From: an uncultured Candidatus Sumerlaeota bacterium
GTDB taxonomy: Bacteria > Sumerlaeota > Sumerlaeia > MVZB01 > JAJFLK01
Reading direction: 5' to 3'
Length of the DNA stretch: 64,000 nucleotides
Assembly (NCBI GenBank): GCA_964463045.1
Contig: CAYXAU010000001.1
Span: 72,524 to 136,523, forward strand
Shown: piece after piece, positions 591 to 47,816 of the stretch
How the letters are laid out: every line of letters begins with the position of its first letter
How positions within the stretch are numbered: position 1 is the first letter of the stretch
Program-made: the position numbers and the translations under genes
The notes under the pieces: generated by a model
Database searches by the model: none
The model's input: only the letters and a program-made list of their open reading frames with translations
What the model was told of the DNA's origin: nothing

Positions 591-2951
591 ATGCGACAAA
601 GCCGTTCCGTGAAGCGCGCACTTTCTGAAGTCTCCGGAGCGCCTCCGTGGCGCTGCGCTTTTGGCCTCTTCGGCCTCTTTCTGGCCGCGGGGGCCTGGAG
701 CGTGGCTTGCGGCGGGACGAGCCACAAACGGCTCCCCAATATCGTGCTGGTGACGTTGGATACGACCCGCGCCGACCGGCTCGGCTGTTACGGCTACGCG
801 GGGGCCGAAACGCCCAATCTGGATCGGCTGGCCGCCGAGGGAATCCTCTTCGAGCGCGCCTTCGCTCAAGTCCCCATGACGCTCCCCTCCCACGCCTCCC
901 TCCTCACCGGCCTTTATCCCCCGCGGCACGGCCTTCGCCTGAACGGTTTCTATCGCCTCTCCAACGCGATTCCGACCCTCCCGGAGGAACTCCAGCGCCG
1001 CGGCTACGCCACCGGCGCCTTTGTCAGCGCCCGCGTCCTCTACGCGAAATTCGGCCTCGATCGGGGGTTCGATCATTACGACGATGACCTCGTTGATCAG
1101 GGTTTGGAAGCCAAAGAGCGCCGCGGATCCGAAACCCTCCTCCGAGCGCTCGCCTGGCTCGATCAACTCCCCCCCGGCCCTTTCTTCCTCTGGGTCCACC
1201 TCTTCGATCCGCACATGGACTATGACCCTCCCGAACCCTACAGGACTCGCTTCAGCGATCGCCCCTATGACGGCGAAATCGCCTACGCCGACGCCGTTAT
1301 CGGGGAGCTGAGAGAACATCTGACCGCGGTCGGGCAGTTCGAGACGACGCTCCTCATCGTCACCGCCGATCATGGCGAGGGCCTGGGCGAGCACGGCGAG
1401 CAGACCCATGCGTTGCTCGTTTATGACGCCACGTTGCGCGTGCCGTTGATCCTGCGATGGCCCGACGCCGTCCCCGGTCGGCCTCCGGCCTGGACGCCGG
1501 GCCGCCGGATCGACGCCAACGTCCAGACCGTCGACCTCGTCCCGACAATCGCCGGAGCCCTCGGGCTGAATTGGCCCGGCGCGCTCGACGGCCAAAGTCT
1601 CCTCACCAACGAGGGTCGGAATGAAGCGGTCCTCTATGGGGAGTCCTGGTATCCCCTTTCATTCGGTTGGTTCCCGCTGAGGAGCGCCCGGCATGGCCCC
1701 TGGAAATGGATCGAAGCCCCGGAGCCCGAGCTTTATGACCTCGCCGTCGATCCGGGCGAGACGACCAACCGCCTCAGCGCCAACCCCGAAATCGCCGATC
1801 GGCTCCGTCAGGAACTGAGCCGGATCCCCACCGAGGCGGCGGCGCTCGCCGTCTCCCTCGATCGTGGGGACCTCCAAGGTCTCAGGGCCTTGGGCTACGT
1901 CGGCGGCTCGCGGCCGGAGACCGTGGGGCTCGACTTCGGGAACCTGCCCGATCCGAAGACGCGACTGCCGGTCTTCGATGCCGTCAACGCCGCGCGCGCC
2001 TTCTCCGAGGCGGGCTTCCATGACCGGGCGATTCGACTGCTGGACCCTTGGAAGGAACAGGAAGCCAATAACCCCGTCTATCTTCACGTGCTGGGCAAGG
2101 CCCTCATCGGCGGTCGGCGATTCGAGGAAGGGACGCGGATTCTGAGCCGGTACGCGGCGCTGGCTCCCGACGACCTGGAAGCTCCGATGACGCTGGCCAA
2201 AGCCCGGATCGACCAGGGCCAACCAGCGGAGGCCGTCCCCCTTTTGCGGGGTTTGCTCGATCGCTGGCCGAACGATGGGGCGGTTTTCGGATTGCTCTCG
2301 GTAGCGTTGGGCATGATCGGTCGCTACGAGGAGGCGCTCCAGGCGGGCGAGCGTTCCGTCGAACTCGAGCCGCACCTGGCCGATCACCACAAGAATCGGG
2401 GCCTTACGCTCTATCATCTGGGTCGTCTGGGGGAGGCCGAAGCCGCCCTGCGACGGGCTCTCGACTTGAACCCGCAATCGACCGATTACCTCTTTCACCT
2501 GGGGCTGATCCTCAACGCCCAGGAACGCTTCGAGGCTTCAGCCCCGGTTTTCAGGAGCGTCCTGGCCGCCGACCCCGGGCATGTCCCGGCCAGGGAGCGG
2601 CTGATAGTGGCGCTCTATCATCTTGGCCGGCTCGATCAGGTTCGAGCGCTGGGTCAGGAGCTGCCCGAGCCGGCTGAGTCCGCCCCCCTGGGGCGACTTT
2701 ACCTCGGGCGGGTTCAGTACGAGGCTGGAGAGCTTGAGGCCGCCCTGGACAGTCTTGAGGCCGCCGTTCGAGGGCTGCCGACGTTTCCGACGGGTTACCT
2801 CCTCATGGGCCGCGCGTTATTGGAAGGCCCGGAGGCGGGCGAGCGTGCGGCCTGGCTGCTCGATCGCGCCGCCGAAAACGGCGTCGAGCTTCCTCCTGAA
2901 TTGGCCGCTGAGTTGAAGGAACGCCGACGGCAGTCGGCGGGCCCGCCTTGA
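591..2951 (+). CDS. Exported sulfatase-like hydrolase (alkaline-phosphatase superfamily) fused to a C-terminal TPR-repeat domain.
   Basis: ATG at 591 precedes a hydrophobic signal segment. N-terminal motifs are NIVLVTLDTTRADRLGCYGY, TPNLDRLA and VTADHGEGLGEHGE, as in the sulfatase family. The C-terminal ~330 aa hold repeated TPR-like helices (LGRLGEAEAALRRALDLNPQ and similar). The track ORF starts at 453 and overlaps purF, so I chose the internal ATG. Confidence 0.8.
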   Translation: MRQSRSVKRALSEVSGAPPWRCAFGLFGLFLAAGAWSVACGGTSHKRLPNIVLVTLDTTRADRLGCYGYAGAETPNLDRLAAEGILFERAFAQVPMTLPSHASLLTGLYPPRHGLRLNGFYRLSNAIPTLPEELQRRGYATGAFVSARVLYAKFGLDRGFDHYDDDLVDQGLEAKERRGSETLLRALAWLDQLPPGPFFLWVHLFDPHMDYDPPEPYRTRFSDRPYDGEIAYADAVIGELREHLTAVGQFETTLLIVTADHGEGLGEHGEQTHALLVYDATLRVPLILRWPDAVPGRPPAWTPGRRIDANVQTVDLVPTIAGALGLNWPGALDGQSLLTNEGRNEAVLYGESWYPLSFGWFPLRSARHGPWKWIEAPEPELYDLAVDPGETTNRLSANPEIADRLRQELSRIPTEAAALAVSLDRGDLQGLRALGYVGGSRPETVGLDFGNLPDPKTRLPVFDAVNAARAFSEAGFHDRAIRLLDPWKEQEANNPVYLHVLGKALIGGRRFEEGTRILSRYAALAPDDLEAPMTLAKARIDQGQPAEAVPLLRGLLDRWPNDGAVFGLLSVALGMIGRYEEALQAGERSVELEPHLADHHKNRGLTLYHLGRLGEAEAALRRALDLNPQSTDYLFHLGLILNAQERFEASAPVFRSVLAADPGHVPARERLIVALYHLGRLDQVRALGQELPEPAESAPLGRLYLGRVQYEAGELEAALDSLEAAVRGLPTFPTGYLLMGRALLEGPEAGERAAWLLDRAAENGVELPPELAAELKERRRQSAGPP

Positions 2952-3006: not shown

Positions 3007-4197
3007 TTACTTCTCGCTCAAACGTTTCACCATGGCCTTGATCCCGCGCAACGTGAGGTCCTCCATGTGGAAGATCTCGCGGATTTTGGTGAGCGTCCAG
3101 GTTCCGTAAGCGTCCTCCCACTCCTCGCGCGATATGGGATTGAGCCAGACGGATTGGCGGAATCGGTCGGCGAGCCGCTTGAGCCAGTAAGTCGACGGCA
3201 GCTCGTCGGAGACGCCGAAAGAGATTGCCCCGCCCGGCGTTTCGAGTTCCTCGGGGGCCATGCTCGCGTCGCCGACGATGACCAGACGCGTGTCCTCGGG
3301 CCGCTCCAGAATCTTTTCCGTCTTGAGCGGCACGGTCCGCTGCTGATCGGTCCATACGTTGCCGTAGATGGTGTTGTGGAAGAAGCACGTCGTCAGGTCC
3401 TTGAAGCGATACTTCATCCGTGAGAACAGAAGTCGGGTAATGTCAATGTAGGGATACATCGAGAATCCGCCGTTGTCGATCATCAGGACGAGACTGATTC
3501 TGTCACGCAGTTCTCGATTGAGGGCCAGTTCGATGTCCCCTCCGTTCTTGCACGTTAACCGGACGGTCTCGGCCAGGTCCAGTTCATCGCGCGCCCCCTC
3601 CCGCTTGAGCCGTTTCATCTCCTCCAGCGCCTGGCGCAGATTCTCGGCTTTGAGCGTGTTGGTCTCCGAGTAACTGATGTAGCGGCGGTCGCCGATCACC
3701 TTGAGCGCCGAGCGGTTGCCTCCCTCCCCGTGGACCCGGACGCCTCGCTGAGCGAAACCGGAATGCCCGAAGGGGGAGGTCCCTCCCGTTCCGATCCAAC
3801 GGTTGCCCCCGTCGTGAGCCTCCATTTGGCGGCGGACGGTTTCCCAGAACTTGCGCATCAATTCCTGGGGGTCCATCGTCCAGAGGGCCGTCCGGGGGAC
3901 TTCACCGGCGCGGATCGCCTCGGCGAGCCATTCCCGGAACTGCTTGGTCCGGAACAGCTCCATGTCCCCTTCGGCCACCCGGGGGACGTCGACCCCATAG
4001 AAGTAAAGGGCGAAGGCGCGCTCGAAGGCGTCCAGATGCTCGACCTTGCGGACGAACGTCAGCCGGGCCAGGACGAAAAAGTCCTCCAGCGTCCGCACGA
4101 GCCCCTTGCCGAGCCCCCGATAAAGGTCCAGCGCGTCGCGCGGGCTGACGGGAACTCCGTAATCGCGCAGGAGATAAAGAAAGTCGGTAAAGAACAT
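3007..4197 (-). CDS. VWA-domain protein, CoxE-like. Partner of the MoxR ATPase.
   Basis: 396 aa with a C-terminal von Willebrand A-like segment (LVLMIDNGGFSM ... LVIVGDASMAP). It sits 10 bp downstream of the MoxR gene on the same strand, matching the CoxD/CoxE-type pair. Confidence 0.75.
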   Translation of the reverse strand: MFFTDFLYLLRDYGVPVSPRDALDLYRGLGKGLVRTLEDFFVLARLTFVRKVEHLDAFERAFALYFYGVDVPRVAEGDMELFRTKQFREWLAEAIRAGEVPRTALWTMDPQELMRKFWETVRRQMEAHDGGNRWIGTGGTSPFGHSGFAQRGVRVHGEGGNRSALKVIGDRRYISYSETNTLKAENLRQALEEMKRLKREGARDELDLAETVRLTCKNGGDIELALNRELRDRISLVLMIDNGGFSMYPYIDITRLLFSRMKYRFKDLTTCFFHNTIYGNVWTDQQRTVPLKTEKILERPEDTRLVIVGDASMAPEELETPGGAISFGVSDELPSTYWLKRLADRFRQSVWLNPISREEWEDAYGTWTLTKIREIFHMEDLTLRGIKAMVKRLSEK

Positions 4198-4207
4198 CGG
4201 CCCGGCC

Positions 4208-5074
4208 TCACATGAAGTGACGGCGTCGGCCCCCCTTGCGATGGGCTTGGATGTCGGATGAGCGCTTGAGCAGCGTGCCGATGAGCGGCGGATTATCCTT
4301 GTCCGGAATCTCGTTCGTGAGTTCGAGCGCCCCGATCCAGTTGAGCAGTTCGCTCGTGGCCGGCGGCTTCTCGAAGCCTCGGTTGCGCAATTCGTAAAAG
4401 ATCGTCAGGGCGGCTTCGATCAACTCCGGCGGGATGGCCGGATAGTGCAGCTTGACGATCTCGCGCATCTGCTCCGGGCGCGGAAAGGCGATGTGGTGGC
4501 AATAACAGCGGCGCAGGAAGGGATCGGAAAGCTCGCGTTTGGCGTTGCTCGTGATGAAAATCGCCGGCCTCACGCGCGCCCGGACGATCTCGTTGACCTC
4601 CCGGATGACGAAGGAACAATCCTCCAGAATGTCGAGCAGGTTGTCTTGCACGTCGGATTCGGTCTTGTCGATTTCGTCCAGGAGAAGGACGACTTTTGCG
4701 TCGGCCCGGAAGGCGCGCCCGATCGGGCCCCAGACGACGTAATCGTAGAAGTTCTGCACCTGCCGGCCGGTCTGGCCCGATCCGAACCGCGCGTCGTTGA
4801 GCCGGAGCACCGTGTCCTGCGTGTAGCAGGCCTCCTCGCCTTTGATCGTTGATTTGGCCCGCATGATTTCGATCGGCAGGTCGAGCGCGCGCGCCACCTC
4901 CAGGGCCAACTGGGTCTTCCCCGTGCCGGCTTCCCCCGTCAGCAGAAGCGGCTTCTCCATCGCCAGGGCGATGTTGACGATCGACTTGAGTTCCGGATCG
5001 AGATAGTAACGGTCCGTTCCCTGGAACGTGAGACGGTGATCGTTGGTGTCTTCCATGCTTATCCCTTCGGTCAA
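4208..5074 (-). CDS. MoxR-family AAA+ ATPase (CoxD-like).
   Basis: Walker A is LLLTGEAGTGKT and Walker B is VVLLLDEIDK. Sensor regions and length (288 aa) match MoxR/CoxD-like ATPases. Confidence 0.85.
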   Translation of the reverse strand: MTEGISMEDTNDHRLTFQGTDRYYLDPELKSIVNIALAMEKPLLLTGEAGTGKTQLALEVARALDLPIEIMRAKSTIKGEEACYTQDTVLRLNDARFGSGQTGRQVQNFYDYVVWGPIGRAFRADAKVVLLLDEIDKTESDVQDNLLDILEDCSFVIREVNEIVRARVRPAIFITSNAKRELSDPFLRRCYCHHIAFPRPEQMREIVKLHYPAIPPELIEAALTIFYELRNRGFEKPPATSELLNWIGALELTNEIPDKDNPPLIGTLLKRSSDIQAHRKGGRRRHFM

Positions 5075-5216
5075 AGTGGCGCCCCAGTATAGGCGTCTTG
5101 CGTTTGAGGATCGAGCCCCTTGTCCGGCCCGGCAGCCGGGGCGCGCCGGCTCGCGGCTCGCCGCCGCCTCGGCCTGTCCCCGGCGGCGATCTTTTAGGAT
5201 GGCTCAGGGGAGAAGG

Positions 5217-5588
5217 TCAGCGCTGAACGTCCTCGGCGGGAAACCCCGACACGATAGTCTCGTAGGCGACGTAAATCCCCAGGATGTTGGTCAGACGGCA
5301 GTCGATGTGCGTCACGCGCGCGATCTGACCGGAAGCCGCGGCGGCCCGGACGCTACAGTCGCCAAAACTGAACAAGCCAAGGATCGAAACGGCCCCGGAT
5401 CGCCCGACGCGAGGACCGATGGTTTCTCCCCGAAACGTCGTGTCCACGGGCGCCGTCGTCTGGTTGAACCCCGACCCGAAATAGGGGATGACGGGGGTGT
5501 TGAACGTGACGCAAGCCTCGAGGAGAAAGGCCACGGCCACCAGCGAGGCCGCCCGGCCCAACCGAGCCGGGCCGCCTCGGCGGCCGAC
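5217..5588 (-). CDS. Small TRL-like lipoprotein, paralog 1 of 3. The start codon is uncertain.
   Basis: It has a hydrophobic leader ending in LLEAC (lipobox-like). The conserved core SILGLFSFGDCSV..AAASG.I..VTHID....NILGIYVAYETIVSG is shared with the two upstream paralogs. I placed the start at GTG 5588 to avoid overlap with the neighbouring gene; ATG alternatives are at 5627 and 5654. Confidence 0.5.
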   Translation of the reverse strand, partial: VGRRGGPARLGRAASLVAVAFLLEACVTFNTPVIPYFGSGFNQTTAPVDTTFRGETIGPRVGRSGAVSILGLFSFGDCSVRAAAASGQIARVTHIDCRLTNILGIYVAYETIVSGFPAEDVQR

Positions 5589-5592
5589 GGCC

Positions 5593-5943
5593 TCAATTGC
5601 CGTAGATGTTGACGGTGAAGCGGCCATAAATGCCCAACACGTTGACGATTTCATAGTCCGCGTAAGAGACCTCGTTGATGCCGGCCTCGCGCGCCGCCCG
5701 CGCTATGGCCGCCTCGTCCCATCCGAAGTCCAGGGTCGTCAGCAGGAAATCCCGGAAGTAATGCGTCTCCGTCTGCGTGTACCGCTTGACGCCCGGCCCC
5801 GTCGGATTGCCGGCGAAATTGACCGAGAGCGGAGCCTTGACCGAGATGAAGAGCAGCCCCAACGGCGGCCGCACGGGGGCCCGATAAGTCGAAAAAGCGG
5901 CGCAGCCGGCCACGTTCAGCGCCAAGAAGACCATCCCCAGCAT
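5593..5943 (-). CDS. Small TRL-like lipoprotein, paralog 2 of 3.
   Basis: ATG at 5943 gives MLGMVFLALNVAGC, a lipobox. The protein is 116 aa, with the core APVRPPLGLLFISVKAPL ... NVLGIYGRFTVNIYGN homologous to its neighbours. Confidence 0.6.
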   Translation of the reverse strand: MLGMVFLALNVAGCAAFSTYRAPVRPPLGLLFISVKAPLSVNFAGNPTGPGVKRYTQTETHYFRDFLLTTLDFGWDEAAIARAAREAGINEVSYADYEIVNVLGIYGRFTVNIYGN

Positions 5944-5974
5944 CCTGAACCGGCGTCCTCGCGGCAGGGATCGG

Positions 5975-6310
5975 TTACTCGCCATAGGCCGTCGTCGTGA
6001 ACCGCTGAAAGATGAACAACACATTCAAGTAGTCGTAGTCCAGGTGATGAATCGTCGTCAGATTGCCGTCTCGGGCCGCTGAAGCCACGCTGGCGTCCCC
6101 GAAGGCGAACAGGCCCAGCACGCTGAACGCCGACGATTGCCCCGCCTTCATCCCGAACGTCGTCGGATCGGCGTCAATGTCGATCGGCGCCTGGACCGAG
6201 GAGAAAAACAGCCCCGACGGCGGCATGACCGGAGCGTAATAACCCACCAGGCCGCAGCCCGTCGTGAGGAACAGACTGCATCCGGCGATGAGAACCGTGA
6301 GGCGCTTCAT
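5975..6310 (-). CDS. Small TRL-like lipoprotein, paralog 3 of 3.
   Basis: ATG at 6310 gives MKRLTVLIAGCSLFLTTGC (lipobox). The core is APVMPPSGLFFSSVQAPID ... SVLGLFAFGDASVASAARDGNLTTIHHLD..LNVLFIFQRFTTTAYGE. I attribute the pattern ILGL..GDAS..AA..GGI..I...D....N.LGIY....T.V.GE to the TRL-like lipoprotein family. Confidence 0.6.
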   Translation of the reverse strand: MKRLTVLIAGCSLFLTTGCGLVGYYAPVMPPSGLFFSSVQAPIDIDADPTTFGMKAGQSSAFSVLGLFAFGDASVASAARDGNLTTIHHLDYDYLNVLFIFQRFTTTAYGE

Positions 6311-6439
6311 GTCACGTTGGCTCCTGTTGAAGTCACCAGGGGAAACCGACTCCGCGTCTTCCCGCCCCCATCTCCCCCGGCTCGGGTCGGGGCCCCTTCG
6401 GCTGAGACGCGGGGAGAAAACCACGACCCCGCCGGACTG

Positions 6440-7645
6440 TCAAGGAGGTTGACGCCGACCCGATGCCTCGGAGCGCATTCCGCGGCTCGTCGATGCCAGG
6501 AGTTCCATGAGCCGTCGCGCGACGGCGGGCCAGCCGAAGGCGCTCTCGGCCGCGGCGCGAGAGGCCCGTCCGAGGCGCGCCCGACGCTCCGGATCTTCCC
6601 CAAGAGCGATCAATCCCTCGGCCAGGGCTTCCGGGCGCGTCGTGTCGCAGAGCAGCGCGCCGGCTCCCGCCTCCACCAGCTCCCGATGAGGTCCGATGTC
6701 GGAGAGGACCAGCGGCAGGCCGCAGGCCATGGCTTCCAGGACGGCGTTGGGCAGACCTTCCCCCGCCGACGGGTTAACGAAGACGTCGGCCTCCTGGAGA
6801 GCCTCGACGAGGGAGGGCTCCTCAAGCCGGCCGCGCAGAAGCACGGTCGCCTCCAAGCCCCCCTGTCGGACGATCTGCTCAAGCCGCCGGCGTTCGGGCC
6901 CGAAACCGACGAGGTGCAGCTCCCAGGAGGCGCGTCGCCCCCCCTGGAGACGTCTCCAGGCTTCCAGGAGTTCCCGAAGTCGCTTGGAACGAATCAGCCG
7001 GCCGACGTAGAGGAATCGCGGACCGCCGTTCGCGCGGGCCTCCCGTTCCACGTTCGGACGATACCGTTCCAGATCGACGCCATTGGCGACGACCGAAGGG
7101 CGAAGATTCCCATCCGCCTGACGGGCCAGCTCCGCCAGCCACCGGCTGTTGGCGATGATGGCGGCCGAACGTCGCCAGAGTCGGCGTGTCAGGGGCCAGG
7201 CCAGAACGTGCATCCAGGGGGGGGTCTCCGGATAGCCGGGTACGTCCTGGCCCCGAAGGAAGGTCACGAAGGGGCGCCCCCCGAGCCGCGCGATCCGAGC
7301 CGCCACGACGCCGCAGGGGATGGTGAAGTAGGCGACCGTCAGGTCCGGGCTCAGGCGCAGGCTGAGCCCGCGGGCGGCCCACCAGCCCGAGAGCGCGAAA
7401 CTCAGCACTTCGAGCGCCGTCGCATAATTGAGGTGACGCCGAAGGACCGGCAGCCGGAGGACCCGCGCGCCGTCGTCTCGGCTTTCGGCCGGCTGACCCC
7501 TGAAGCGAGAGGTCAGGATCGTTACTTCAACACCCATCCGGGCCAGCTCTCGCGCCGTCGCCTGGACAGCTTTGCCCGTTCCGCCCCCGACCGGCGGATA
7601 TTCGTACGTGATGAGCAAAAAGTGCTGCGTGGACGGCGCGGTCAT
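6440..7645 (-). CDS. Glycosyltransferase family 4 (GT-B, retaining).
   Basis: The N-terminus reads HFLLITYEYPPVGGGTG. The C-terminal nucleotide-sugar binding signature EGLPNAVLEAMACGLPLV is typical of GT4. Start set at the internal ATG MTAPSTQ (7645). Confidence 0.8.
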   Translation of the reverse strand: MTAPSTQHFLLITYEYPPVGGGTGKAVQATARELARMGVEVTILTSRFRGQPAESRDDGARVLRLPVLRRHLNYATALEVLSFALSGWWAARGLSLRLSPDLTVAYFTIPCGVVAARIARLGGRPFVTFLRGQDVPGYPETPPWMHVLAWPLTRRLWRRSAAIIANSRWLAELARQADGNLRPSVVANGVDLERYRPNVEREARANGGPRFLYVGRLIRSKRLRELLEAWRRLQGGRRASWELHLVGFGPERRRLEQIVRQGGLEATVLLRGRLEEPSLVEALQEADVFVNPSAGEGLPNAVLEAMACGLPLVLSDIGPHRELVEAGAGALLCDTTRPEALAEGLIALGEDPERRARLGRASRAAAESAFGWPAVARRLMELLASTSRGMRSEASGRRQPP

Positions 7646-7706
7646 GGGGGGGAGAACCGGCGGGGGGCGGAAGGGGAGATCGAACGCGGGCGGCAACGAC
7701 GAGGGC

Positions 7707-8672
7707 TCAGGCGTCCGGTTCGGGGTTGGCCCGGTCCTCGTCAAATCCGATAGTCTCGTCGATGACGTAGGGCGGCCGACCCTTGAGTTCCTCGTAAATC
7801 CGGCCCAGATACTCCCCCATGATCCCCAGCATGATCAGTTGCGCCCCGCCGAGGACGAGGACGGAGACGACGACCGTCGACCAGCCGGCGATGGCCTGAA
7901 ATTGGCCCGTGACGCGCTGGGCGACGATCCAGGCCGCGTAGATCAGCCCGAGCGTCGATATCCCGAGGCCCAGCAGCGTGCTCAACCGCAACGGGACGAA
8001 CGAGAAGGAAAAGAACGCGTCCAGGGCCAGGCGCGCCAGGCCCTTGAATGTGTACTTGGGCGCGCCGGCGTTGCGCGCCTCGCGCTCGTACTCGAAGCCG
8101 ACCTGCCGGAAGCCGACCCAGGAGCGCAATCCCCGGACGAATCGGCTCCGCTCGGGCATGGCGTTGAGCTGATCGACCGCGCGGCGGCTCATGATGCAGA
8201 AATCCCCCGCGTCGGTCGGAATGTCGATGTAAGACATGCTCTGGAGCGCGCGATAGAAGAGATAGTAGAGGGCCCGGATGAACCAGTTCTCCTTGCGTTT
8301 GCGACGAACGGCGTAGACGACCTCGGCCTTCGTCTCCCGCATCCGGCTGAGCATCTCGGGCAGGGCCTCGGGCGGGTCTTGAAGGTCCCCGTCCATGAGG
8401 GCGACGGCGCGACCCCGCGCGTGCCGCATCCCCGCCGTGAGGGCCGTCTGATGACCAAAGTTGCGCGAGAAACTGATGATGCGGACTCGCGGGTCCCCGC
8501 GGCGCAGCTTGCGCATCAATTCGAGCGAGCGGTCCTGGCTGGCGTCGTTGACGAAGATGATTTCGCTCGTCCCGCCGATCTTCTCCAGCGCTCCGGCCAG
8601 GCGCCGATGCAGCTCTTCCAGATTTTCCTCTTCGCAGTAGATCGGAATGACGACCGAGAAATCGACGCTCAA
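7707..8672 (-). CDS. GT2 polyprenyl-phosphate glycosyltransferase (DPM1/ArnC/GtrB-like).
   Basis: It begins VVIPIYCEEENL. A DGDLQDPPE (DxD-type) motif and two C-terminal TM helices are present. Length is 321 aa, the architecture of polyisoprenyl-phosphate sugar transferases. Confidence 0.85.
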   Translation of the reverse strand: MSVDFSVVIPIYCEEENLEELHRRLAGALEKIGGTSEIIFVNDASQDRSLELMRKLRRGDPRVRIISFSRNFGHQTALTAGMRHARGRAVALMDGDLQDPPEALPEMLSRMRETKAEVVYAVRRKRKENWFIRALYYLFYRALQSMSYIDIPTDAGDFCIMSRRAVDQLNAMPERSRFVRGLRSWVGFRQVGFEYEREARNAGAPKYTFKGLARLALDAFFSFSFVPLRLSTLLGLGISTLGLIYAAWIVAQRVTGQFQAIAGWSTVVVSVLVLGGAQLIMLGIMGEYLGRIYEELKGRPPYVIDETIGFDEDRANPEPDA

Positions 8673-8737
8673 GCTGTCGGTCCCTTCGCCCCGGCGGTCG
8701 CGACGGCCCCGTCACGCTCCGGCCCGTCGGCCGCCTC

Positions 8738-11179
8738 TCACGCGCGCCGCCGGCGATCGCTCGGGCGCAGGCGCGCGATGACCTGGCCGGCGCGCCGTCG
8801 ATCCTCGGCCGACGGCGGGCGACCGGCGAACCGGTGCCGATAGTATAGTTCGACCAACCAGCGCAAATCGGGATCGGGCCCGACCGCGCCCGCGACCGCC
8901 TGAACGAATTCAAGCGGGGTCTGCCAGGATGGCCGCCGCCAGCCGGCCCGTTCGAGCCGCGCCATCAGGCGGTTGAAATAGTCGATCTCCGAACGGGCGA
9001 CCCGCCGGCGACGCCCAAAACGCGCCAACGGCGCGAGCCTTCGCAGGAGCAGCAGGGCAAGGATCACCAAGAGGCCGTCCAGAAGCCGGCCCCAGCGGAC
9101 CTGCGGCCGCGACGTCGAGACCGGCCGAGCCTCTTCCGGCGGGCCGGACTTGAGCTGCCGCCACGCCCCTGAAGCCAGCCGGCCGAAAGCGCTCCCCTCA
9201 AGCTCCTCCCACAGCGAGGCGAAGACGACCTGTTGCTTGGCCTGAGAGTAATCGATGACCCCCCGCTGCCAGAGCACGCGGGCGTATTCGTTCAGCCGCC
9301 GCAGAAAGGTGTCCTCGGCCAGGCCATAGACGGCGCGCCCGGCCGCCCCGGCCGGGGTCGGATCCACCGTAAGCCACCCCAATTCGTCGATCCAGGCCTC
9401 GACCCAGCTATGCGCGTCGCTCTGGCGGACGACGAACACCCCCGCCAGATCGTTCCATTCGGTCGTGTAAAAGCCGTTGACCAGGCGGGCGGGGATGCCG
9501 CGCGAGCGCAGCATCAGGACGAGGGCCGTCGCGAAATACTCGCAATGGCCCCGCTGCGTCCGGAAGACGAAGGCCTCGATGGGGTCCTCCCCCGGCCGCG
9601 GTTCCTGCTCTACGGTATAGACATAACCCGTCCTCAAATGGCCCAACAATTGAAAAACGATCCCGGCCTCGGTGGGGCCCGGCGCGACGCGAAGGGAGTG
9701 CTCGCGGAGGCGTTCGGCCAGCGGACCCGCCGGCAGTTGGGTGTTAACGAGACGCTCCTGCGCGCTCAGCCGGTGGCTGCGTCCCGCCGAAAGCCAGGGG
9801 TAACGCCGGTCCCGCGGACCCCGGCCTTTGGACGTGTCGCGCAGGAGACGGACGGTGTCCGGATCGTTGACGGTCCGCAGGACCTGTGCCGTGCGGCGAC
9901 GCAGATCCTGCTCGTATCGAATGTAGTCCACGAGCAACGGCGTGGCCTCATCGACGGCGTTGGAGCGCACCTGATAGACTAGCGGGTTGGTATAGGCGGT
10001 GTCGCGTCCGCCGCCGAAGGCGGCGATCTGGGCCGAGCCCGTGGCGCCGTCGTGACGAATGCTCAACTCCCGCATGAGGTCGATTTCCAGCGGCATCGGG
10101 GCCGCGAAGAGCCGCAGCGTGATGTCGGAGTCCTGGTATATCCGCTGATGCATGATCCGGCCGATCTGCGAGGTCGGAATGACCGGGTTCAGATGCCGCC
10201 GATCCAGCGTCGCCGGCGTCATCGTCGGGCGGCGGAACTTGCGCCACCGGTTGCCTTCGAACACGTCCAAGGCCACCCCCCGCATCCGCAGCAGCGGCGG
10301 CCGATCCGTCGACGCCGCCCCCGGCGGCCAGTCCACCTCGACGCGCATGACGACCGTCGGATCAGGCTCCAGCCGCTTGAAGTCCCCCAGCGTGACCTCC
10401 TCGCTGAATCCCATCAGACGATCCGGCCCCCCCGGCCGCCCCGCCAATGGAGCGTCGATCTGACGCATGGAAACGTGCGGGATGAAGACGAAGTACAGGA
10501 CGGTTCCCGTGACCGCCGCCGCCGCGAGCGCCAAAGCGCCAATGACGAACCGGCGCGAGAGACGCCCCCCGAGCGTAATGCCGCGCGGAGACGGCCCGGC
10601 GGCGACCGCCTCCGGTCCCCGCCCCGCCCGCGCCCTGCCTTCCTGCCCGATGACGAGTCCGTAAAGCGCCAGGCTCACCGTGGCCAGGACGACGTAACCC
10701 AGGAAGACGAAGGAGAAGAAGAAGGCCACGGTGATGGCGGCCGCGGCCAACATCATAAAGAAGGCCATGATTTGGACCTGAAGAATGTCCTTCGCCCGGC
10801 GGGGCGCGATCGATTTGGCCAGCACCAGATAGAACAGGAGGTAAATCACGCCGTTGAAGGCAAGCTGCCGGGCCGCCATCGCGATCGCCAGCGTCACCAC
10901 CATCGTCGCCAGCGCCCCCCAGGAGGCATTCCACCACGCCGGCGCCTTTCGGATCCATGGCACGATCAACCAACCGAGCCCGAACGCCAGGCTCGCCCAG
11001 GCGTGCATTTCTCCCGTCAGATACAACGAGAGGAAAGCCACGAGGACCTGGAGGTGAGCGACGACCCGCCAGAGGGCGCGAACCTCCAACGGCAGCCGGC
11101 GGAGCGACTCCGCGGCCGTCCCTGACGCCGACGTCGGCGACGCCCCAGGGACGGGTGGCGATGCAATCGAAAGCGCCAT
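8738..11179 (-). CDS. Transglutaminase-like membrane protein (TgpA-like: N-terminal multi-TM, transglutaminase core, C-terminal TM).
   Basis: The N-terminus has 5-6 TM helices. The core carries GHCEYFATALVLMLRSRGIPARLVNGF ... SDAHSWVEAW, a Cys-His-Asp transglutaminase/protease core. A C-terminal TM segment is followed by a basic tail. Confidence 0.8.
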   Translation of the reverse strand: MALSIASPPVPGASPTSASGTAAESLRRLPLEVRALWRVVAHLQVLVAFLSLYLTGEMHAWASLAFGLGWLIVPWIRKAPAWWNASWGALATMVVTLAIAMAARQLAFNGVIYLLFYLVLAKSIAPRRAKDILQVQIMAFFMMLAAAAITVAFFFSFVFLGYVVLATVSLALYGLVIGQEGRARAGRGPEAVAAGPSPRGITLGGRLSRRFVIGALALAAAAVTGTVLYFVFIPHVSMRQIDAPLAGRPGGPDRLMGFSEEVTLGDFKRLEPDPTVVMRVEVDWPPGAASTDRPPLLRMRGVALDVFEGNRWRKFRRPTMTPATLDRRHLNPVIPTSQIGRIMHQRIYQDSDITLRLFAAPMPLEIDLMRELSIRHDGATGSAQIAAFGGGRDTAYTNPLVYQVRSNAVDEATPLLVDYIRYEQDLRRRTAQVLRTVNDPDTVRLLRDTSKGRGPRDRRYPWLSAGRSHRLSAQERLVNTQLPAGPLAERLREHSLRVAPGPTEAGIVFQLLGHLRTGYVYTVEQEPRPGEDPIEAFVFRTQRGHCEYFATALVLMLRSRGIPARLVNGFYTTEWNDLAGVFVVRQSDAHSWVEAWIDELGWLTVDPTPAGAAGRAVYGLAEDTFLRRLNEYARVLWQRGVIDYSQAKQQVVFASLWEELEGSAFGRLASGAWRQLKSGPPEEARPVSTSRPQVRWGRLLDGLLVILALLLLRRLAPLARFGRRRRVARSEIDYFNRLMARLERAGWRRPSWQTPLEFVQAVAGAVGPDPDLRWLVELYYRHRFAGRPPSAEDRRRAGQVIARLRPSDRRRRA

Positions 11180-11254: not shown

Positions 11255-12811
11255 TTAATAACCCAGCGCGGCGCCATCCTTGCGGGGGTCGGAGGCGCCC
11301 AGATAAGTCCCCGTTCCGGGATCGACGACGATCGCTTGCGCCCCGCCGAATTCCTCCCCGCCGGCCGGCCGGACGCGATGGCCCAGGGCAGCCAGCCCCC
11401 GCGCGGTCCGATGGGCCATCCCGTGCTCCAGACGCACCTCCCGCCCCGCCATGTGCCGCCAACGTGGCAGGTCGATGGCCTCCTGCATCGTCAAGCCATG
11501 TTCGAGGTGCGCCAGAAGAACCTGGACCTGCCCCTGGGGCTGCATCGGGCCGCCCATGACGCCGAAAGCCGCGTAGAGACGCCCTCCGCGGAGGACCATC
11601 GCCGGGATGATCGTGTGGTAGGGGCGCTTGCCCGGAGCGTAGGCGTTGGGGTGGCCGGGCTTCAAGGTGAAGCCCGCCCCGCGATTCTGCAGCAAGATGC
11701 CCGTCGCCCCGCCGACGATGCCGGAACCGAAGCCGGCGAAGAGCGAGCTGATGAAGGAGGCGGCGTTTCCCTCGGCGTCCACCGTCGCCAGGTAAACCGT
11801 ATCGGAGCCGGCTCTCAGACCGGGCTCGAGTCGGCCGGCGGCTCGCGAGGGATCGATCAACCGGCGCCGCGCCTCGGCGTAGGGCTTCGACAAGAGGTCT
11901 TGAATCGGGATCGACCCGGCCGCCGGGTCGCCGACGTAGCGCCCCAGATCGGCGTACGCCAGCTTCTTGGCCTCGATCAGCAGATGGAGATAGGGGGCTG
12001 AATTGAGTCGCAGCGCGGCGAGGTCGAACCCCTCCAGAATATTCAGCATCAGCAGGACGCCGAGGCCTTGGCCGTTCGGCGGACATTGGCAGACCTCAAG
12101 GCCCCGGTAGTTGACCGAAATGGGATCGACCCATTCGGATCGGTGCTGGTCGAAATCCTCCAGGGTCAGGAACCCCCCGGATTCCCTCGCATGGCGGACG
12201 ATCTCCTCCGCGATCGGGCCGCGGTAGAAAGCCCCCGGTCCCGCTTCGGCGATGAGTTTCAATGACTCCCCCAGACGAGGTTGTCGGAAGACCTCCCCCG
12301 CGCGCGGGGCCGAGCCGTCGACAAGATAAAGCGAGCGGGCCCACGGATCCACGCTCAGCGTTTTCTCGTGCTGCTTCCACGTCCGGGCGACGACCTCGGT
12401 CACGCCGAACCCTTCTTCAGCGTAGCGGATCGCGGGCGTCAGGACGGCCGCCAGGGACTTGCGCCCGAAGCGTTCCAACGCCGCGGCAAAGGCGTCCACC
12501 GCCCCGGGGACCGTGACCGCTTCCCAGGAACGGACCGGAACCGCCTTGAAAGCTCGCCGCCGGAAGTGATCCGGCGAGAGCCGGCGAGGCGAGCGCCCGC
12601 TTCCATTGAGGGCGTGCACCCGGCCCGTGCGCGCTTCGTAGTAGAGAAGCCAGACGTCCCCACCGAGCCCGACGCTCATCGGCTCGACCACGCCCAGGGT
12701 GGCCGCCGCGGCCACGGCGGCGTCCATCGCCGTCCCCCCCGTCCGCAGCAGGTCAAGCCCCGCCTGGGAGGCGAGGACGTGCGAGGTGGCCACGATTCCA
12801 TGGCGACTCAT
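11255..12811 (-). CDS. ggt: Gamma-glutamyltransferase-family protein, with no obvious signal peptide.
   Basis: MSRHGIVATSHVLASQAGLDLLRTGGTAMDAAVA matches the GGT large subunit. TVYLATVD is the autoprocessing Thr region, and GGPMQPQG the small subunit. Start set at ATG 12811; an upstream in-frame ATG at 12898 is also possible. Confidence 0.85.
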   Translation of the reverse strand: MSRHGIVATSHVLASQAGLDLLRTGGTAMDAAVAAAATLGVVEPMSVGLGGDVWLLYYEARTGRVHALNGSGRSPRRLSPDHFRRRAFKAVPVRSWEAVTVPGAVDAFAAALERFGRKSLAAVLTPAIRYAEEGFGVTEVVARTWKQHEKTLSVDPWARSLYLVDGSAPRAGEVFRQPRLGESLKLIAEAGPGAFYRGPIAEEIVRHARESGGFLTLEDFDQHRSEWVDPISVNYRGLEVCQCPPNGQGLGVLLMLNILEGFDLAALRLNSAPYLHLLIEAKKLAYADLGRYVGDPAAGSIPIQDLLSKPYAEARRRLIDPSRAAGRLEPGLRAGSDTVYLATVDAEGNAASFISSLFAGFGSGIVGGATGILLQNRGAGFTLKPGHPNAYAPGKRPYHTIIPAMVLRGGRLYAAFGVMGGPMQPQGQVQVLLAHLEHGLTMQEAIDLPRWRHMAGREVRLEHGMAHRTARGLAALGHRVRPAGGEEFGGAQAIVVDPGTGTYLGASDPRKDGAALGY

Positions 12812-12994
12812 CGTCAGGGAGCGACCCGCGCGGTAGGGGTTGGCGCGGATTCCCCGGCGTTCAAGAGTCCGGAGTTCGCGCTCGGCGCCGATCCCCATCG
12901 TGGCGGCTTGAAGACCCGTTCGGCGCCTCAGTCGAAAGCGCTCATCCCGACTGAGGCGGGCGATTCGACAAGGGAAGGGGGAGTTCAGAGCGAT

Positions 12995-13879
12995 TCATCG
13001 GCCCGGGTTGGAGGTCTCCCCCCGCGGCGTGGCATCGCCCGGTTCAAGGCCGAGCGCCCAGCGCAGGCCTCCCAGAAGATGCGCCTGAAACGTGAGGTTG
13101 GTCCAAACGTCCTCCCGGTGGCCGAGCGCCGTGTAGAAGACCCGTCCCTGGCCATAGTCCCGGCACCAGGCGAGCGGGTAGTCCCCGCCCTTGGTCATCC
13201 CCGCCTGGCGTCCCATGGTGCTCCGTTCCGTGTCGACGCTGATGAGCACCCGAACGCGGTCGCGGGACAACGGCACGCTCCCGCGCGAGCCGGCCTCCCC
13301 CCGGCCGAACTGATAATATTCGTCGGCCAGCGGCCACGTGTCCCCCAACATTCGCGTGGCCGGGTGGAGCTTGTCCTCGATCCTCAGGACCAGGACCTCG
13401 TCATTGGCCCCGTGCGTTTTGAAATAGCCGCCGATCATTTCTCCGTAGCCCGGCCATTCATAGTAGGTGTCCGTGGCGCTGTGGACGCCGACGAAGGCCT
13501 TGCCCCCGCGGACAAAAGCCAGAAGGGCCTCCTTCTGCGCGTCGTCCAGCGGGAGTTCGCCCGTCGTGAAGAACATCACCACGGCGAAGGCCTTCAGATA
13601 GTCCGGCGAGATCATCCGGAGATCGATCGCGTCCCGTTCCTGTTTGTAGCCCTCCAGGACCGTCGCTTCGAACAGGCCGGATTTCCGGCCCAGTTCGACA
13701 ACGACGCGCTCGGCCACCGGCAGGGACGAATGCTTGAACCCCTGGCTGTGAGTCAGAAATAAGAGCTTGGCCGGGGCGCCGCCGGCGCCGCCCCCTTCCT
13801 GACCGACGGCCGTCGTCCCCATGACGGCCAGCATAGCTGCTCCAGCGATGAGGCTCGCGAGACAACGGAACGCTTTCAT
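12995..13879 (-). CDS. ThuA-like (trehalose-utilisation, class-I glutamine-amidotransferase-like) secreted protein.
   Basis: A signal peptide MKAFRCLASLIAGAAMLAV is present. The motifs LLFLTHSQGFKH ... FVGVHSATDTY ... YYQFG are characteristic of the ThuA family. Confidence 0.75.
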   Translation of the reverse strand: MKAFRCLASLIAGAAMLAVMGTTAVGQEGGGAGGAPAKLLFLTHSQGFKHSSLPVAERVVVELGRKSGLFEATVLEGYKQERDAIDLRMISPDYLKAFAVVMFFTTGELPLDDAQKEALLAFVRGGKAFVGVHSATDTYYEWPGYGEMIGGYFKTHGANDEVLVLRIEDKLHPATRMLGDTWPLADEYYQFGRGEAGSRGSVPLSRDRVRVLISVDTERSTMGRQAGMTKGGDYPLAWCRDYGQGRVFYTALGHREDVWTNLTFQAHLLGGLRWALGLEPGDATPRGETSNPGR

Positions 13880-14095: not shown

Positions 14096-14188
14096 GGAGA
14101 GGTGTCCGAGTGGTTGAAGGAGCTCGCCTCGAAAGCGAGTGAGGGGCCGAAAGCCCTTCCGTGGGTTCGAATCCCACCCTCTCCGCCA
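14096..14188 (+). tRNA. tRNA-Ser (anticodon CGA), class II with long variable arm, CCA encoded.
   Basis: The acceptor stem GGAGAGG pairs with CCTCTCC. The D-arm is GTCCGAGTGGTTGAAGGAG, the anticodon loop CTCGAAA, and the T-arm GGGTTCGAATCCC. A long extra arm is present. Confidence 0.85.
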
Positions 14189-24178: not shown

Positions 24179-26107
24179 ATGTGTGGCATCGTCGGCCTGA
24201 TTGATCCCGAGCGTCGCCGCGAGGACGTGGAAACTTCGTTGCGGCGGATGGCGGCCACGCTGACGCATCGCGGTCCGGACGACGAGGGCTTCCTCAGCGC
24301 CGACGGCAGCGGCGTCGGGATGCGCCGTTTGAGCATCATCGACGTGGCTGGCGGTCGCCAGCCCCTATCGAACGAGACGGGAACCCTGCATCTCGTCCTC
24401 AACGGCGAGATTTACAACCACCTGGACCTCCGCCGGGAGCTGGAGAGCAAGGGCCATGTCTTCCGAACTCGGTCCGACGCCGAGGCCGCCCTTCACGGTT
24501 ATGAAGCCTGGGGGCCGGACGTCTGCCGCCGCCTGGACGGCATGTTCGCTCTCTGCCTCTACGATGCCCAGGGGCCCTCTTTCTTTCTGGCGCGGGACCG
24601 GTTGGGTAAGAAGCCCCTTTATTACGCCCGACTCAGCTCGGGGGGGCTCGCCTTCGGTTCCGAAATCAAGGCGCTTCTGGCCCTCGGGGGGATTGACCGC
24701 CGCCCGTGCTTGCCGGCGCTCTATCATTACCTGACGCTCCAATACGTCCCGGACCCGCTGTCGGCCTTCGAGGGAATCCTGAAACTGCCGCCCGCACATG
24801 CTTTGGCCTGGCGCCCCGGTGAGGCCCAACCGACGCCCCGGCGCTATTGGCAGTTGGAGTATGAGCCGAAAGCGCCCTTGGCGGAGGCCGAGGCGGCTCA
24901 GCGGCTTCGGTCCCACCTGGAGCGGGCCGTTCGCGCTCGACTGATGAGCGAGGTGCCGCTGGGAGCCTTCCTGAGCGGTGGCCTGGATTCCTCGATCGTC
25001 GTGGGGCTGATGGCCGAGGCCGCCGCCGGCCCGGTCAAGACGTTCTCCATCGGTTTCAAGGAGAGCGCCTTCAGTGAACTGCCGGATGCCCGCCGGGTGG
25101 CCGACCATTTTCAGACCGAGCATCATGAATTCATCGTCGAGCCCCGCGCGGTCGAGACGCTCCCCGCGCTCGTCGCCGCCTTCGATGAACCCTTTGCCGA
25201 TCCCTCGGCGTTGCCCGTCTGGTATCTCAGTGAATTGACGCGGCGCCAAGTCACGGTGGCGCTCAACGGCGACGGCGGCGACGAACTGTTCGCCGGCTAC
25301 CAGCGGTATGCGTTGGAGCCGTGGCTCCAGAGGTGGCGGCGGGTCCCGAAGTGGGGGCGGGCCCCGGTCGAAACTCTCCTGGCCCGGGGCCTCGCCACCT
25401 CCGGCGACGTTCCGATCGAACGGGACTGGCGGGCCGGGCTGAGGCGACTCTCCGAGGCGGCGGCGACCGATCCGCGCGCCAGCATCGTCGCCTGGGGATC
25501 GTACTTCTCGGAGCCGTGGAAGCGGGAGTGGCTCAGTTCGGATTTTCTCGAGGCCGTCGGGTCCGTGGATTCGGAAGGATGGATCGCCAAGGCCCATGAG
25601 GCGGCGGCGGCCAGAACGCCTTTGGACCGTGCGTTGGCGACCGACATCGCGACCTACCTGCCGGGCGATCTCCTGGTCAAGGTCGATCGGATGACGATGG
25701 CCCATTCGGTCGAGGCCCGATCCCCCTTCCTCGATCATCACCTGGCGGAATTTGTCGCCCGCCTGCCGACGCCGATGAAGCTCCGATGGGGCCGCGGCAA
25801 AGCCCTCCTTCGGCGCGCCTTTCGGGATCGGCTCCCGGCCGAAGCCTTCGCCAAACCCAAACAGGGCTTCGGCGTTCCGGTGAGCGCCTGGTTCCGCCAG
25901 GGCCCGCTCGCCGATCGCTGGCGCGACCGACGGCCGAGCCTGAACGTCCGCGGGCTTTTCAAGCCCGGGGCGTTGGATCGACTCTCGGCCGAGCACCACG
26001 CCGGCGCGGTCGATCACGGCAAGCGCCTCTGGGCGCTCCTGATGCTGGAAGAATGGTTCGAGCTGTATCAGGTGCAGGGAGCCCATCCAGGCTGCGCCGC
26101 CGTGTGA
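24179..26107 (+). CDS. asnB: Asparagine synthase (glutamine-hydrolysing) family amidotransferase.
   Basis: MCGIVG is the N-terminal nucleophile Cys2. SGGLDSS is the PP-loop. Length is 642 aa. Confidence 0.85.
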   Translation: MCGIVGLIDPERRREDVETSLRRMAATLTHRGPDDEGFLSADGSGVGMRRLSIIDVAGGRQPLSNETGTLHLVLNGEIYNHLDLRRELESKGHVFRTRSDAEAALHGYEAWGPDVCRRLDGMFALCLYDAQGPSFFLARDRLGKKPLYYARLSSGGLAFGSEIKALLALGGIDRRPCLPALYHYLTLQYVPDPLSAFEGILKLPPAHALAWRPGEAQPTPRRYWQLEYEPKAPLAEAEAAQRLRSHLERAVRARLMSEVPLGAFLSGGLDSSIVVGLMAEAAAGPVKTFSIGFKESAFSELPDARRVADHFQTEHHEFIVEPRAVETLPALVAAFDEPFADPSALPVWYLSELTRRQVTVALNGDGGDELFAGYQRYALEPWLQRWRRVPKWGRAPVETLLARGLATSGDVPIERDWRAGLRRLSEAAATDPRASIVAWGSYFSEPWKREWLSSDFLEAVGSVDSEGWIAKAHEAAAARTPLDRALATDIATYLPGDLLVKVDRMTMAHSVEARSPFLDHHLAEFVARLPTPMKLRWGRGKALLRRAFRDRLPAEAFAKPKQGFGVPVSAWFRQGPLADRWRDRRPSLNVRGLFKPGALDRLSAEHHAGAVDHGKRLWALLMLEEWFELYQVQGAHPGCAAV

Positions 26108-26136
26108 TTGACAGGTCCGGGAGCGCTCTTTAGCAT
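26108..26136 (+). promoter_or_regulatory. Candidate sigma70-type promoter (TTGACA-N17-TAGCAT) for the dehydrogenase-wecB pair.
   Basis: TTGACA at 26108-26113, a 17-nt spacer, then TAGCAT at 26131-26136. It lies about 95 nt upstream of the ATG at 26234 and overlaps the asnB stop. Confidence 0.3.
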
Positions 26137-26233
26137 CGCCCGCCCGGGCATTTCCTTCGAGGGTTCGCCCAGCGAGGGCGTTCGGGACCGTCCCGCGCCG
26201 GCTCAGGACGAATCTTGAAGAGGCGGAACAGGC

Positions 26234-27559: not shown

Positions 27560-27584
27560 AAATCCCGGACGGAACCTCGCGCCG

Positions 27585-32043: not shown

Positions 32044-32468
32044 GGGGGCTTCCTCCTTCGACTCGCGGTCGGTCATCGATCCTTGCGGTTCAAGGGGGGG
32101 TAAGGAAGGTGCCCGGCGGGCCGATACCCCTCGGGCTCGTTGGCTCTACAAAAGATTATAGGTTCGCGCCGGGACGCCGACCACACGATTTAACCTCGCC
32201 CCGTGTTCGCCGAACCGCCCGACGCCCCTCGCCCGGAACCCGCTCGGCCCCGACAAACGGCCGGCTCCGCCCGTTCCCCTTGATCCGCAAGCTCGCCGGG
32301 CAGCCGACGGAGAGTCCCCCTTGCCGGGCGGAAGACGCCCAACCTCGCGTTGGCCGAGAAGGGGGCGCCTGCGTTCAGCCTCTTTGGGGCAAACCTTGAA
32401 GGTGGGAGGCGGGTCAGGAATGTGATAAAAGGGGACGATGAGTTCTTTGTGGTGGGTCCTCCGAATCA

Positions 32469-46011: not shown

Positions 46012-46087
46012 GCCCAAATAGCTCAGTCGGTAGAGCACATGCATGGTAAGCATGAGGTCGCCGGTTCGATTCCGGCTTTGGGCTCCA
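46012..46087 (+). tRNA. tRNA-Thr (anticodon GGT), CCA encoded.
   Basis: Acceptor GCCCAAA pairs with TTTGGGC. The D-arm is TAGCTCAGTCGGTAGAGC, the anticodon stem-loop CATGC-ATGGTAA-GCATG, and the T-arm GCCGGTTCGATTCCGGC. A 7-bp hairpin (GCCGCTC..GAGCGGC) lies downstream. Confidence 0.85.
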
Positions 46088-47606: not shown

Positions 47607-47816
47607 ACGGACCCGCCGCCCCCCTGCCGCCTCCGCATTGAATCCGACGGCTCCAATCGACGGCTTTTTGCGGTGGCCGTTGCCGTAGCCGATCGAGATA
47701 AGGTTTAATTCATTCGTAAGGCGGGAAGGGCGTCGGGCGGAACATGGCCCCGATCAGGCTCGACGCCGGCGCTGGGGCGCCGCCGTCGCGCCGCGCCCGC
47801 CTCCCCTCGTCGATCC

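Follow-up and report, generated by a model that had tools for sequence, protein, structure and literature searches.

We examined a 64,000-nucleotide (nt) stretch of DNA from an uncultured Candidatus Sumerlaeota bacterium (contig CAYXAU010000001.1, positions 72,524 to 136,523; the whole stretch is referred to below as the window), concentrating on positions 3007-11179. This segment encodes, in coding order, a TgpA-like membrane transglutaminase, a polyprenyl-phosphate glycosyltransferase of family GT2, a glycosyltransferase of family GT4, three small lipoproteins of the TRL-like family (TRL1-TRL3), a MoxR-family AAA+ ATPase, and a CoxE-like protein with a VWA domain (Table 1). The segment belongs to a run of ten genes, all on the minus strand, that opens with a ThuA-family gene and a gamma-glutamyltransferase (GGT) gene and closes with the VWA gene. 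The locus is ordinary and not a new envelope machine. Comparison with other genomes makes it quite likely that 3007-11179 holds three independently evolving units which have come to lie side by side on one strand by chance: a TgpA-GT2-GT4 block, the TRL array, and the ATPase/VWA pair.

The genes named by the initial annotation all exist on one strand, including GGT and ThuA upstream of TgpA and a tandem array of three TRL-like lipoproteins; open reading frames (ORFs), domain matches, and independent gene calls on the source contig agree. The region has ~66% G+C, and the ORF reading has a third-position GC of 0.75-0.86. Successive gaps by gene calls, from ThuA to VWA, are 96, 75, 65, 61, 129, 40, 31, 160, and 10 nt. 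An assembly artefact is ruled out, since separate ENA and JGI assemblies (source contigs ERZ27245685 k141_84298 and 3300022563) show an identical gene arrangement.

Table 1. Coordinates of the ten-gene run, its boundaries, and the remaining transfer RNA (tRNA) genes of the window
Feature	Positions	Strand	Evidence and remarks
tRNA-Ser(CGA)	14096..14188	+	ARAGORN and Rfam; divergent from ThuA; upstream boundary of the run
ThuA-family protein	12995..13879	-	PF06283 162 bits; 294-amino-acid gene call; first of the co-directional run
Gamma-glutamyltransferase (GGT)	11255..12898	-	PF01019 508 bits; TIGR00066 410.6 bits (cutoff 357.85)
TgpA-like membrane transglutaminase	8738..11179	-	TgpA_N, Transglut_core, and DUF4129, all above cutoff
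Polyprenyl-phosphate glycosyltransferase GT2 (GtrB/ArnC/PgfS type)	7707..8672	-	PF00535 117 bits
GT4 glycosyltransferase	6440..7645	-	Glycos_transf_1 118.9 bits; Glyco_transf_4 75 bits
TRL1 small lipoprotein	5975..6310	-	PF13146 69.8 bits (cutoff 25); 111-amino-acid gene call
TRL2 small lipoprotein	5593..5985	-	PF13146 31.9 bits (cutoff 25)
TRL3 small lipoprotein	5217..5561	-	PF13146 68.2 bits (cutoff 25); 114-amino-acid gene call
Spacer before ATPase gene	5057..5216	-	160 nt, largest gap of the run; -10-like box and ribosome-binding site
AAA_5-type MoxR-family AAA+ ATPase	4208..5056	-	AAA_5 47.7 bits
CoxE-like VWA protein	3007..4197	-	PF05762 VWA_CoxE 20.5 bits (cutoff 26.4)
Convergent sulfatase-TPR gene	591..2951	+	Sulfatase 159 bits and TPR repeats; gene call; downstream boundary of the run
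tRNA-Thr-GGT	46012-46087		with tRNA-Ser-CGA and tRNA-Arg-CCT, the three tRNA genes of the window
tRNA-Arg-CCT	47816-47893

In the TgpA-like protein, about five transmembrane helices lie at the N-terminus and one more past the catalytic domain, and the catalytic triad (Cys546/His590/Asp606) is intact and invariant in alignment A1. The GT2 protein matches PgfS (E 3.8e-77) and ArnC-like (E 4.3e-46) models, both under the equivalog cutoffs; it carries a DGD motif at residue 94 and C-terminal transmembrane helices at residues 233-251 and 267-285, and its nearest named homologues come from Sumerlaeota. Farther upstream, the ThuA protein begins with a hydrophobic signal sequence, and the GGT protein is without a signal peptide. 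We saw nothing that ties the ThuA gene to those after it.

The TRL paralogues share 28%-38% identity (TRL2 is 36% identical to TRL1 and 28%-30% to TRL3), and because the copies are so diverged we take the triplication to be old. Read from the sequence, TRL1 has the signal peptide MKRLTVLIAGC; by eye, the lipoboxes are IAGC in TRL1, VAGC (in NVAGC) in TRL2, and an atypical LEAC (in LLEAC) in TRL3. The start of TRL2 is ambiguous, at 5934 by gene call or at 5985 through a methionine that gives a charged n-region.

The ATPase has a Walker A motif (GEAGTGKT) at residue 41 and a Walker B motif (VLLLDE) at residue 123. Its label of MoxR ATPase stands in the broad, family-level sense; its best match is AAA_5, and AAA_3 reaches only 16.4 bits against a cutoff of 27. 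The VWA gene starts 10 nt downstream, and both products are predicted to be soluble, neither having a transmembrane segment or signal peptide. The VWA protein itself reached no Pfam or NCBIfam model at threshold, and 29 of 37 VWA orthologues match PF05762 at E <= 0.01 (best E 5.6e-12). Across the orthologue alignment D241-N-G-G-x-S246-M and G309-D310-A are invariant and T276 is nearly so, giving a site like the metal ion-dependent adhesion site (MIDAS), DNGGxS...T276...D310, with the first serine of DxSxS replaced.

Structural searches added little: the VWA protein had zero matches in the PDB by sequence and profile searches, the ATPase had weak P-loop matches to midasin only, and a single-sequence AlphaFold model of the VWA protein was discarded at a mean confidence (pLDDT) of 36. 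We rejected an anti-phage defence reading. PADLOC returned only weak generic P-loop matches for the ATPase (E >= 6.7e-8), one marginal match for GT2 (HEC-01B, E 3.6e-5), and none for the other six proteins, and the GT4-conflict Pfam match of GT4 lies far below its generic GT4 match.

Gene neighbourhoods in related genomes

The TgpA-like protein is poorly conserved, with only three homologues above 35% identity. In all three of the closest relatives with an orthologous TgpA (L157, L070, and L155), the GT2 and GT4 genes are conserved beside it, so the order TgpA-GT2-GT4 is found with similar spacing in four genomes, including the window (Table 2). The TgpA-GT2 spacer measures ~55-160 nt by gene calls. 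GT4 follows GT2 in six relatives (L070, L154, L155, L156, L157, and L158), and the stop codon of the one often overlaps the start codon of the other. Immediately upstream of TgpA, L070 has a GGT orthologue (61%), which is absent from that position in L155.

Table 2. Arrangement of the eight GT2-anchored relatives, with identities to the window proteins
Locus	Arrangement	Identity
L070	GGT-TgpA-GT2-GT4, then DUF309 and others	GGT 61%, TgpA 46%, GT2 65%, GT4 55%
L157	TgpA-GT2-GT4, then convergent 2-hydroxyacid dehydrogenase	TgpA 46%, GT2 67%, GT4 52%
L155 (Sumerlaeota metagenome-assembled genome GCA_964598765.1)	TgpA-GT2-GT4, then MutS	TgpA 40%, GT2 61%, GT4 50%
L154, L156, L158	GT2-GT4 without TgpA	GT2 62-65%, GT4 50-54%
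L159	GT4 (34% identical, partial length) before GT2, beside BacA	GT2 64%
L153	GT2 alone	GT2 66%

Past GT4 the synteny breaks. TRL, ATPase, and VWA genes were found in none of the eight GT2-anchored relatives (L070, L153-L159). Two cases place the block and the ATPase gene apart within one genome or sample. In GCA_964598765.1, TgpA-GT2-GT4 lies on contig 13 and an ATPase gene (79% identity, locus L002) on contig 24, more than 12 kb from either contig end. L157 and L160, which have the best GT2 match and the best ATPase match (82%), respectively, outside the window's own 100%-identical clusters, come from the same sample and lie on separate contigs; the L160 ATPase gene is preceded by a sigma-54 activator gene and two small ORFs that are not TRL.

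A metagenome scan with the TgpA alignment yielded 80 distant TgpA loci (22%-30% identity), which served as a negative control and not as close relatives. At none of them did we find the ATPase/VWA pair, a GGT or TRL gene, or GT2 or GT4 next to TgpA. Of the 83 other TgpA loci (these 80 plus L070-L072), 12 show the canonical arrangement, with a DUF58 gene as the immediate upstream neighbour of TgpA, and 39 have a MiaB-like radical-SAM gene downstream.

The ATPase-anchored scan, which drew on one genome per species, gave 67 loci (L001-L067) with ATPase identities of 62%-83%, spanning Hydrogenedentota, Sumerlaeota, Thermoanaerobaculia/Holophagales, Leptospirales, and others. Of the 60 loci with room for it, 48 have the VWA gene immediately after the ATPase gene, with VWA identities of 46%-64% across Hydrogenedentota, Sumerlaeota, Thermoanaerobaculia, and Leptospirales; the other 12 have no VWA gene within 10 kb. 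Clustering of the ORFs at all 67 loci revealed no further neighbour common to more than ~16 of them. Searching with all window proteins (tblastn, E <= 1e-3), we found TgpA, GT2, GT4, GGT, or TRL within 10 kb at none of the 67 loci, where upstream room was at least 1.5 kb in 55 and at least 6.2 kb in 37. Because the VWA adjacency recurs while the other neighbours keep changing across these loci, the ATPase/VWA pair is, judged by its neighbourhoods, a self-contained and widely inherited two-gene unit. Conservation of the pair is unusually high, and the family counts 1689 cluster representatives at E <= 1e-3; with neither a curated family model nor a structure, the pair marks a sizeable uncharacterised MoxR branch.

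Solitary ATPase genes have penicillin amidase, phosphodiesterases, glycoside hydrolases, PMT_2, and subtilase genes as neighbours. The idea that large ORFs beside them conceal a hidden TgpA or VWA partner was rejected, as these ORFs are unrelated enzymes. We also noted that the VWA orthologue of one Acidobacteriota metagenome-assembled genome (L050, 10832-12028) has two in-frame stops, the mark of a pseudogene or of an error in sequencing.

For the TRL array, a profile hidden Markov model of the three paralogues had no match in the other 158 loci.

Several further neighbours of TgpA and GT2 deserve mention. GGT adjoins a TgpA of the protein-glutamine gamma-glutamyltransferase type in both the window and L070 (L070 1-4002), and a distant TgpA (L071 7071-10232) is preceded by glutaminyl cyclase, so that glutamine and gamma-glutamyl enzymes recur beside TgpA. 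On the source contig, past the start of the window, a PMT_2 gene (L068 18376-20088) lies ~7.5 kb from the locus, and a Sumerlaeota relative has a GT87 gene two genes past GT4 (L154 13310-14659). Both are of GT-C type and are candidate users of a polyprenyl-phosphate sugar made by GT2.

One module or three units

Because the linkage is absent from relatives, synteny breaks past GT4, and the block and the ATPase gene occupy different contigs, we read the segment as three separate units. The co-directional adjacency recurs in no other genome examined, so we take it to be no more than chance placement. The initial annotation had suggested that the MoxR-VWA pair is tied to an envelope glycosylation or lipoprotein process and that the locus could be an unrecognised envelope-modification module, and it had asked whether GT2, GT4, and TRL are conserved inserts. 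The conservation of GT2 and GT4 beside TgpA is the one part of this that holds. The proposed tie of the pair to the TgpA, glycosylation, and lipoprotein genes fails in the comparison: the pair and those genes are linked at none of the 67 ATPase, 80 TgpA, and eight GT2-anchored loci, what lies past GT4 is not retained in relatives, and non-conserved neighbours were what the annotation itself had named as evidence against it. The case carries a caution, in that a plausible "expanded operon" of recognisable domains can dissolve under cross-genome comparison of neighbours.

The first unit is a lineage-specific (Sumerlaeota-like) TgpA-GT2-GT4 block, sometimes with GGT upstream. From the adjacency and domain content that we observe, we infer the following roles. 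GT2 would load a sugar onto polyprenyl phosphate at the inner membrane face, with the soluble GT4 working alongside it on a nucleotide-sugar-dependent step. The polytopic TgpA, whose Cys-His-Asp transglutaminase domain would face outward as in Pseudomonas aeruginosa TgpA, would then cross-link or trim an envelope protein of the same pathway. That the trio recurs within one lineage points tentatively to a role for TgpA in the context of an envelope glycoconjugate. The second unit would consist of the three diverged TRL paralogues, predicted envelope lipoproteins that probably arose by an old tandem triplication. In the third, the cytoplasmic AAA_5-type ATPase and its CoxE-like VWA adaptor would act as a two-gene remodelling or maturation device whose client is presumably encoded elsewhere than next to the pair.

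The transcription signals bear on the boundary of the third unit. Within the 160-nt spacer, a -10-like TATACT (5091-5086) lies 29 nt before the ATPase ATG, together with an AAGGG ribosome-binding site, and orthologous ATPase genes with unrelated upstream genes have similar TAnAnT-like boxes 30-55 nt upstream. The box is suggestive of a separate promoter, and on this basis the ATPase/VWA pair probably has one of its own. A promoter/terminator scan gave the same counts as shuffled sequences and found no minus-strand terminator in any spacer. Folding of seven spacers gave z-scores of -1.5 to +0.6, and the 160-nt spacer folded no better than its shuffles (z = +0.40).

Two other signals were noted. 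The ThuA-GGT spacer (12899-12994) contains a perfect 14-bp hairpin without a U-tract (z = -1.5 against shuffles), which may act as a terminator or as a regulatory stem, parting ThuA from the downstream genes. At four ATPase loci (L007, L011, L020, and L039), a palindrome-like GCTATTGTATAGCAT lies ~35-55 nt upstream of the ATPase start codon. It is conserved in a subset of the Hydrogenedentota loci and may be a combined promoter and operator.

Some points weigh against the three-unit reading. The ten co-directional genes are separated by gaps of 10-160 nt, with no recognisable terminator between them, and all ten could be co-transcribed in the window organism. An orthologous TgpA occurs in only three relatives, the lineage is thinly sampled, and a closer relative may keep the whole arrangement. 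The absence of TRL genes was scored at loci anchored on other genes, none of them TRL-anchored. Within the first unit, the suggested functional coupling comes solely from gene neighbourhood, and a GT-C transferase, needed to use a polyprenyl-phosphate sugar, lies outside the block, the nearest PMT_2 gene being ~7.5 kb off.

It is possible, though doubtful, that the TgpA-GT2-GT4 order is inherited without a shared function, GT2-GT4 being the true unit and TgpA a neighbour in one sub-lineage. GT2-GT4 does occur without TgpA in L154, L156, and L158, adjacent GT2 and GT4 genes are missing at the 80 distant TgpA loci, and all four genomes with the trio might share a recent common ancestor. Nevertheless, the trio persists despite TgpA identities of 40%-46% and full turnover of the flanks on both sides, and the TgpA-GT2 spacer stays short (~55-160 nt).

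A bolder account, which we consider improbable, holds that the Sumerlaeota-like TgpA exchanged MoxR/DUF58 for the lipid-carrier GT2-GT4 genes (sometimes with GGT), forming an undescribed envelope module in which the outward-facing transglutaminase would act on a glycosylated envelope component. In the window genome alone, TRL lipoproteins would have been added as possible substrates. Independently of this, the ATPase/VWA pair would stand for an uncharacterised subfamily of MoxR proteins, very strongly conserved and with a changed MIDAS.

It strikes us as very unlikely that all the genes from TgpA through VWA make up a single envelope-modification module, with the MoxR/VWA proteins serving as chaperones for TgpA, the glycosyltransferases, and the TRL proteins. 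In favour of this view, the genes run in one direction with short gaps between them, no terminator was found, several products (TgpA, the polyprenyl-phosphate GT2, and the lipoproteins) are envelope-related, and other bacteria do show a link between TgpA-like transglutaminases and ATPases of the MoxR type (PMC8430577, PMC3507681). The synteny data given above nonetheless largely refute it; moreover, the ATPase and VWA subtypes are unlike those of the known triad, and both proteins are predicted to be cytoplasmic, whereas an extracytoplasmic location is predicted for the transglutaminase domain and for the TRL proteins. We dismiss as extremely unlikely the idea that the TRL genes and those of the ATPase and VWA proteins make up a single unit (for example, a lipoprotein-biogenesis chaperone) inserted downstream of the glycosyltransferase block: the two are adjacent, co-directional, and both missing past GT4 in relatives, as if they had arrived together, but a TRL gene is found at none of the 55 ATPase loci with at least 1.5 kb upstream, L160, with the closest ATPase relative, has other genes there, a promoter-like box stands in the gap between them, and their products are predicted to occupy different compartments.

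Other features of the window

Three further groups of genes stood out away from the run. On the minus strand, positions 55457-62052 hold a group of signalling genes, which encode two STAS proteins (one with a protoglobin domain, one single-domain), two kinases (an RsbW-like HATPase_c_2 kinase and a HisKA histidine kinase), and a response regulator carrying GAF, PAS, and HD_5 (HD-GYP-like) domains; this looks like a globin-coupled partner-switching module. At 24179-28688, an asparagine-synthase-like amidotransferase, a UDP-sugar dehydrogenase, and a UDP-GlcNAc 2-epimerase in a row make up a nucleotide-sugar supply set, ~13 kb from the glycosyltransferase genes. Positions 28696-32076 and 48091-53249 encode three very large proteins of secreted type: one is 1126 amino acids long and has FG-GAP, BNR, and Temptin_C domains, and the other two, 845 and 874 amino acids long, have bacterial Ig-like and TSP3 repeats.

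Comparison with known systems

The GT2 protein resembles GtrB/ArnC/PgfS-type systems in its catalytic domain, DXD motif, and two C-terminal transmembrane helices, an architecture typical of enzymes that make polyprenyl-phosphate sugars for periplasmic glycosylation. It differs in staying under the equivalog cutoffs and in being paired with GT4 and, in this lineage, with TgpA. We found no GT-C transferase or flippase inside the TgpA-GT2-GT4 block.

The TRL proteins can be set beside the Leptospira adhesin Lsa14, beyond which we found nothing in the literature on the TRL family (PF13146). All three match the family above threshold and have lipoprotein-type signal peptides; two of them also match Lsa14 weakly, though under the equivalog cutoff (36 and 44 bits against 120), and among the loci that we compared, three diverged copies in tandem appear at such a position only in the window genome.

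TgpA is essential in P. aeruginosa, where we take PA2875 to be a MoxR protein and PA2874 a DUF58 protein. PA2875-PA2874-tgpA are co-transcribed, and the outward-facing periplasmic domain of TgpA has transglutaminase activity (PMC3507681). The published order of the cluster, a MoxR-proper ATPase, DUF58, and the transglutaminase, is described in bifidobacteria (the PFNA core aaa-atp-duf58-tgm) and noted for mycobacteria (PMC8430577, PMC12067865). The window locus shares with this MoxR(MRP)-DUF58-transglutaminase cluster a TgpA with TgpA_N, a Cys-His-Asp core, and DUF4129, and a MoxR-family ATPase gene on the same strand within a few kilobases. The initial annotation had seen in these genes the recurrent MoxR/VWA/TgpA triad, an identification that breaks down on ATPase subtype, adaptor family, gene order, and contiguity alike. 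The ATPase here is AAA_5 and not AAA_3/MRP, its partner is a CoxE-like VWA protein and not DUF58 (AAA_3, which scored best on this very ATPase, and DUF58 were below threshold in all 49 window ORFs scanned), TgpA comes first, with five genes (3.7 kb) between it and the ATPase gene, and the linkage is, among the genomes examined, peculiar to this one.

The best-scoring named NCBIfam models for the ATPase and VWA proteins are MadB and MadC, from which both fall far short (109.2 bits against a cutoff of 475 for the ATPase, and 24.1 against 600 for the VWA protein); a literature search found no paper describing MadB/MadC. The CoxD-CoxE, NorQ-NorD, CbbQ-CbbO, and RavA-ViaA dyads offer a better parallel. 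As in these, a gene for a small AAA+ ATPase is followed by one for a VWA protein, and the two are inherited together; the VWA family, though with the window protein itself under the cutoff, matches the CoxE-type Pfam model and has an N-terminal helical region before the VWA part (PMC7159879, PMC9976466). Unlike them, it has the first MIDAS serine replaced (DNGGxS against DxSxS). No client genes of the cox, nor, or cbb type (carbon monoxide dehydrogenase, nitric oxide reductase, or Rubisco) were found in the window, and the neighbours of the pair vary over the 67 loci. By subtype and organisation, the window ATPase/VWA pair thus appears closer to the CoxD-CoxE-type dyads than to the MoxR-DUF58-TgpA triad. 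The two MoxR-family subtypes, AAA_3 with DUF58 and AAA_5 with a CoxE-like VWA protein, should be kept apart.

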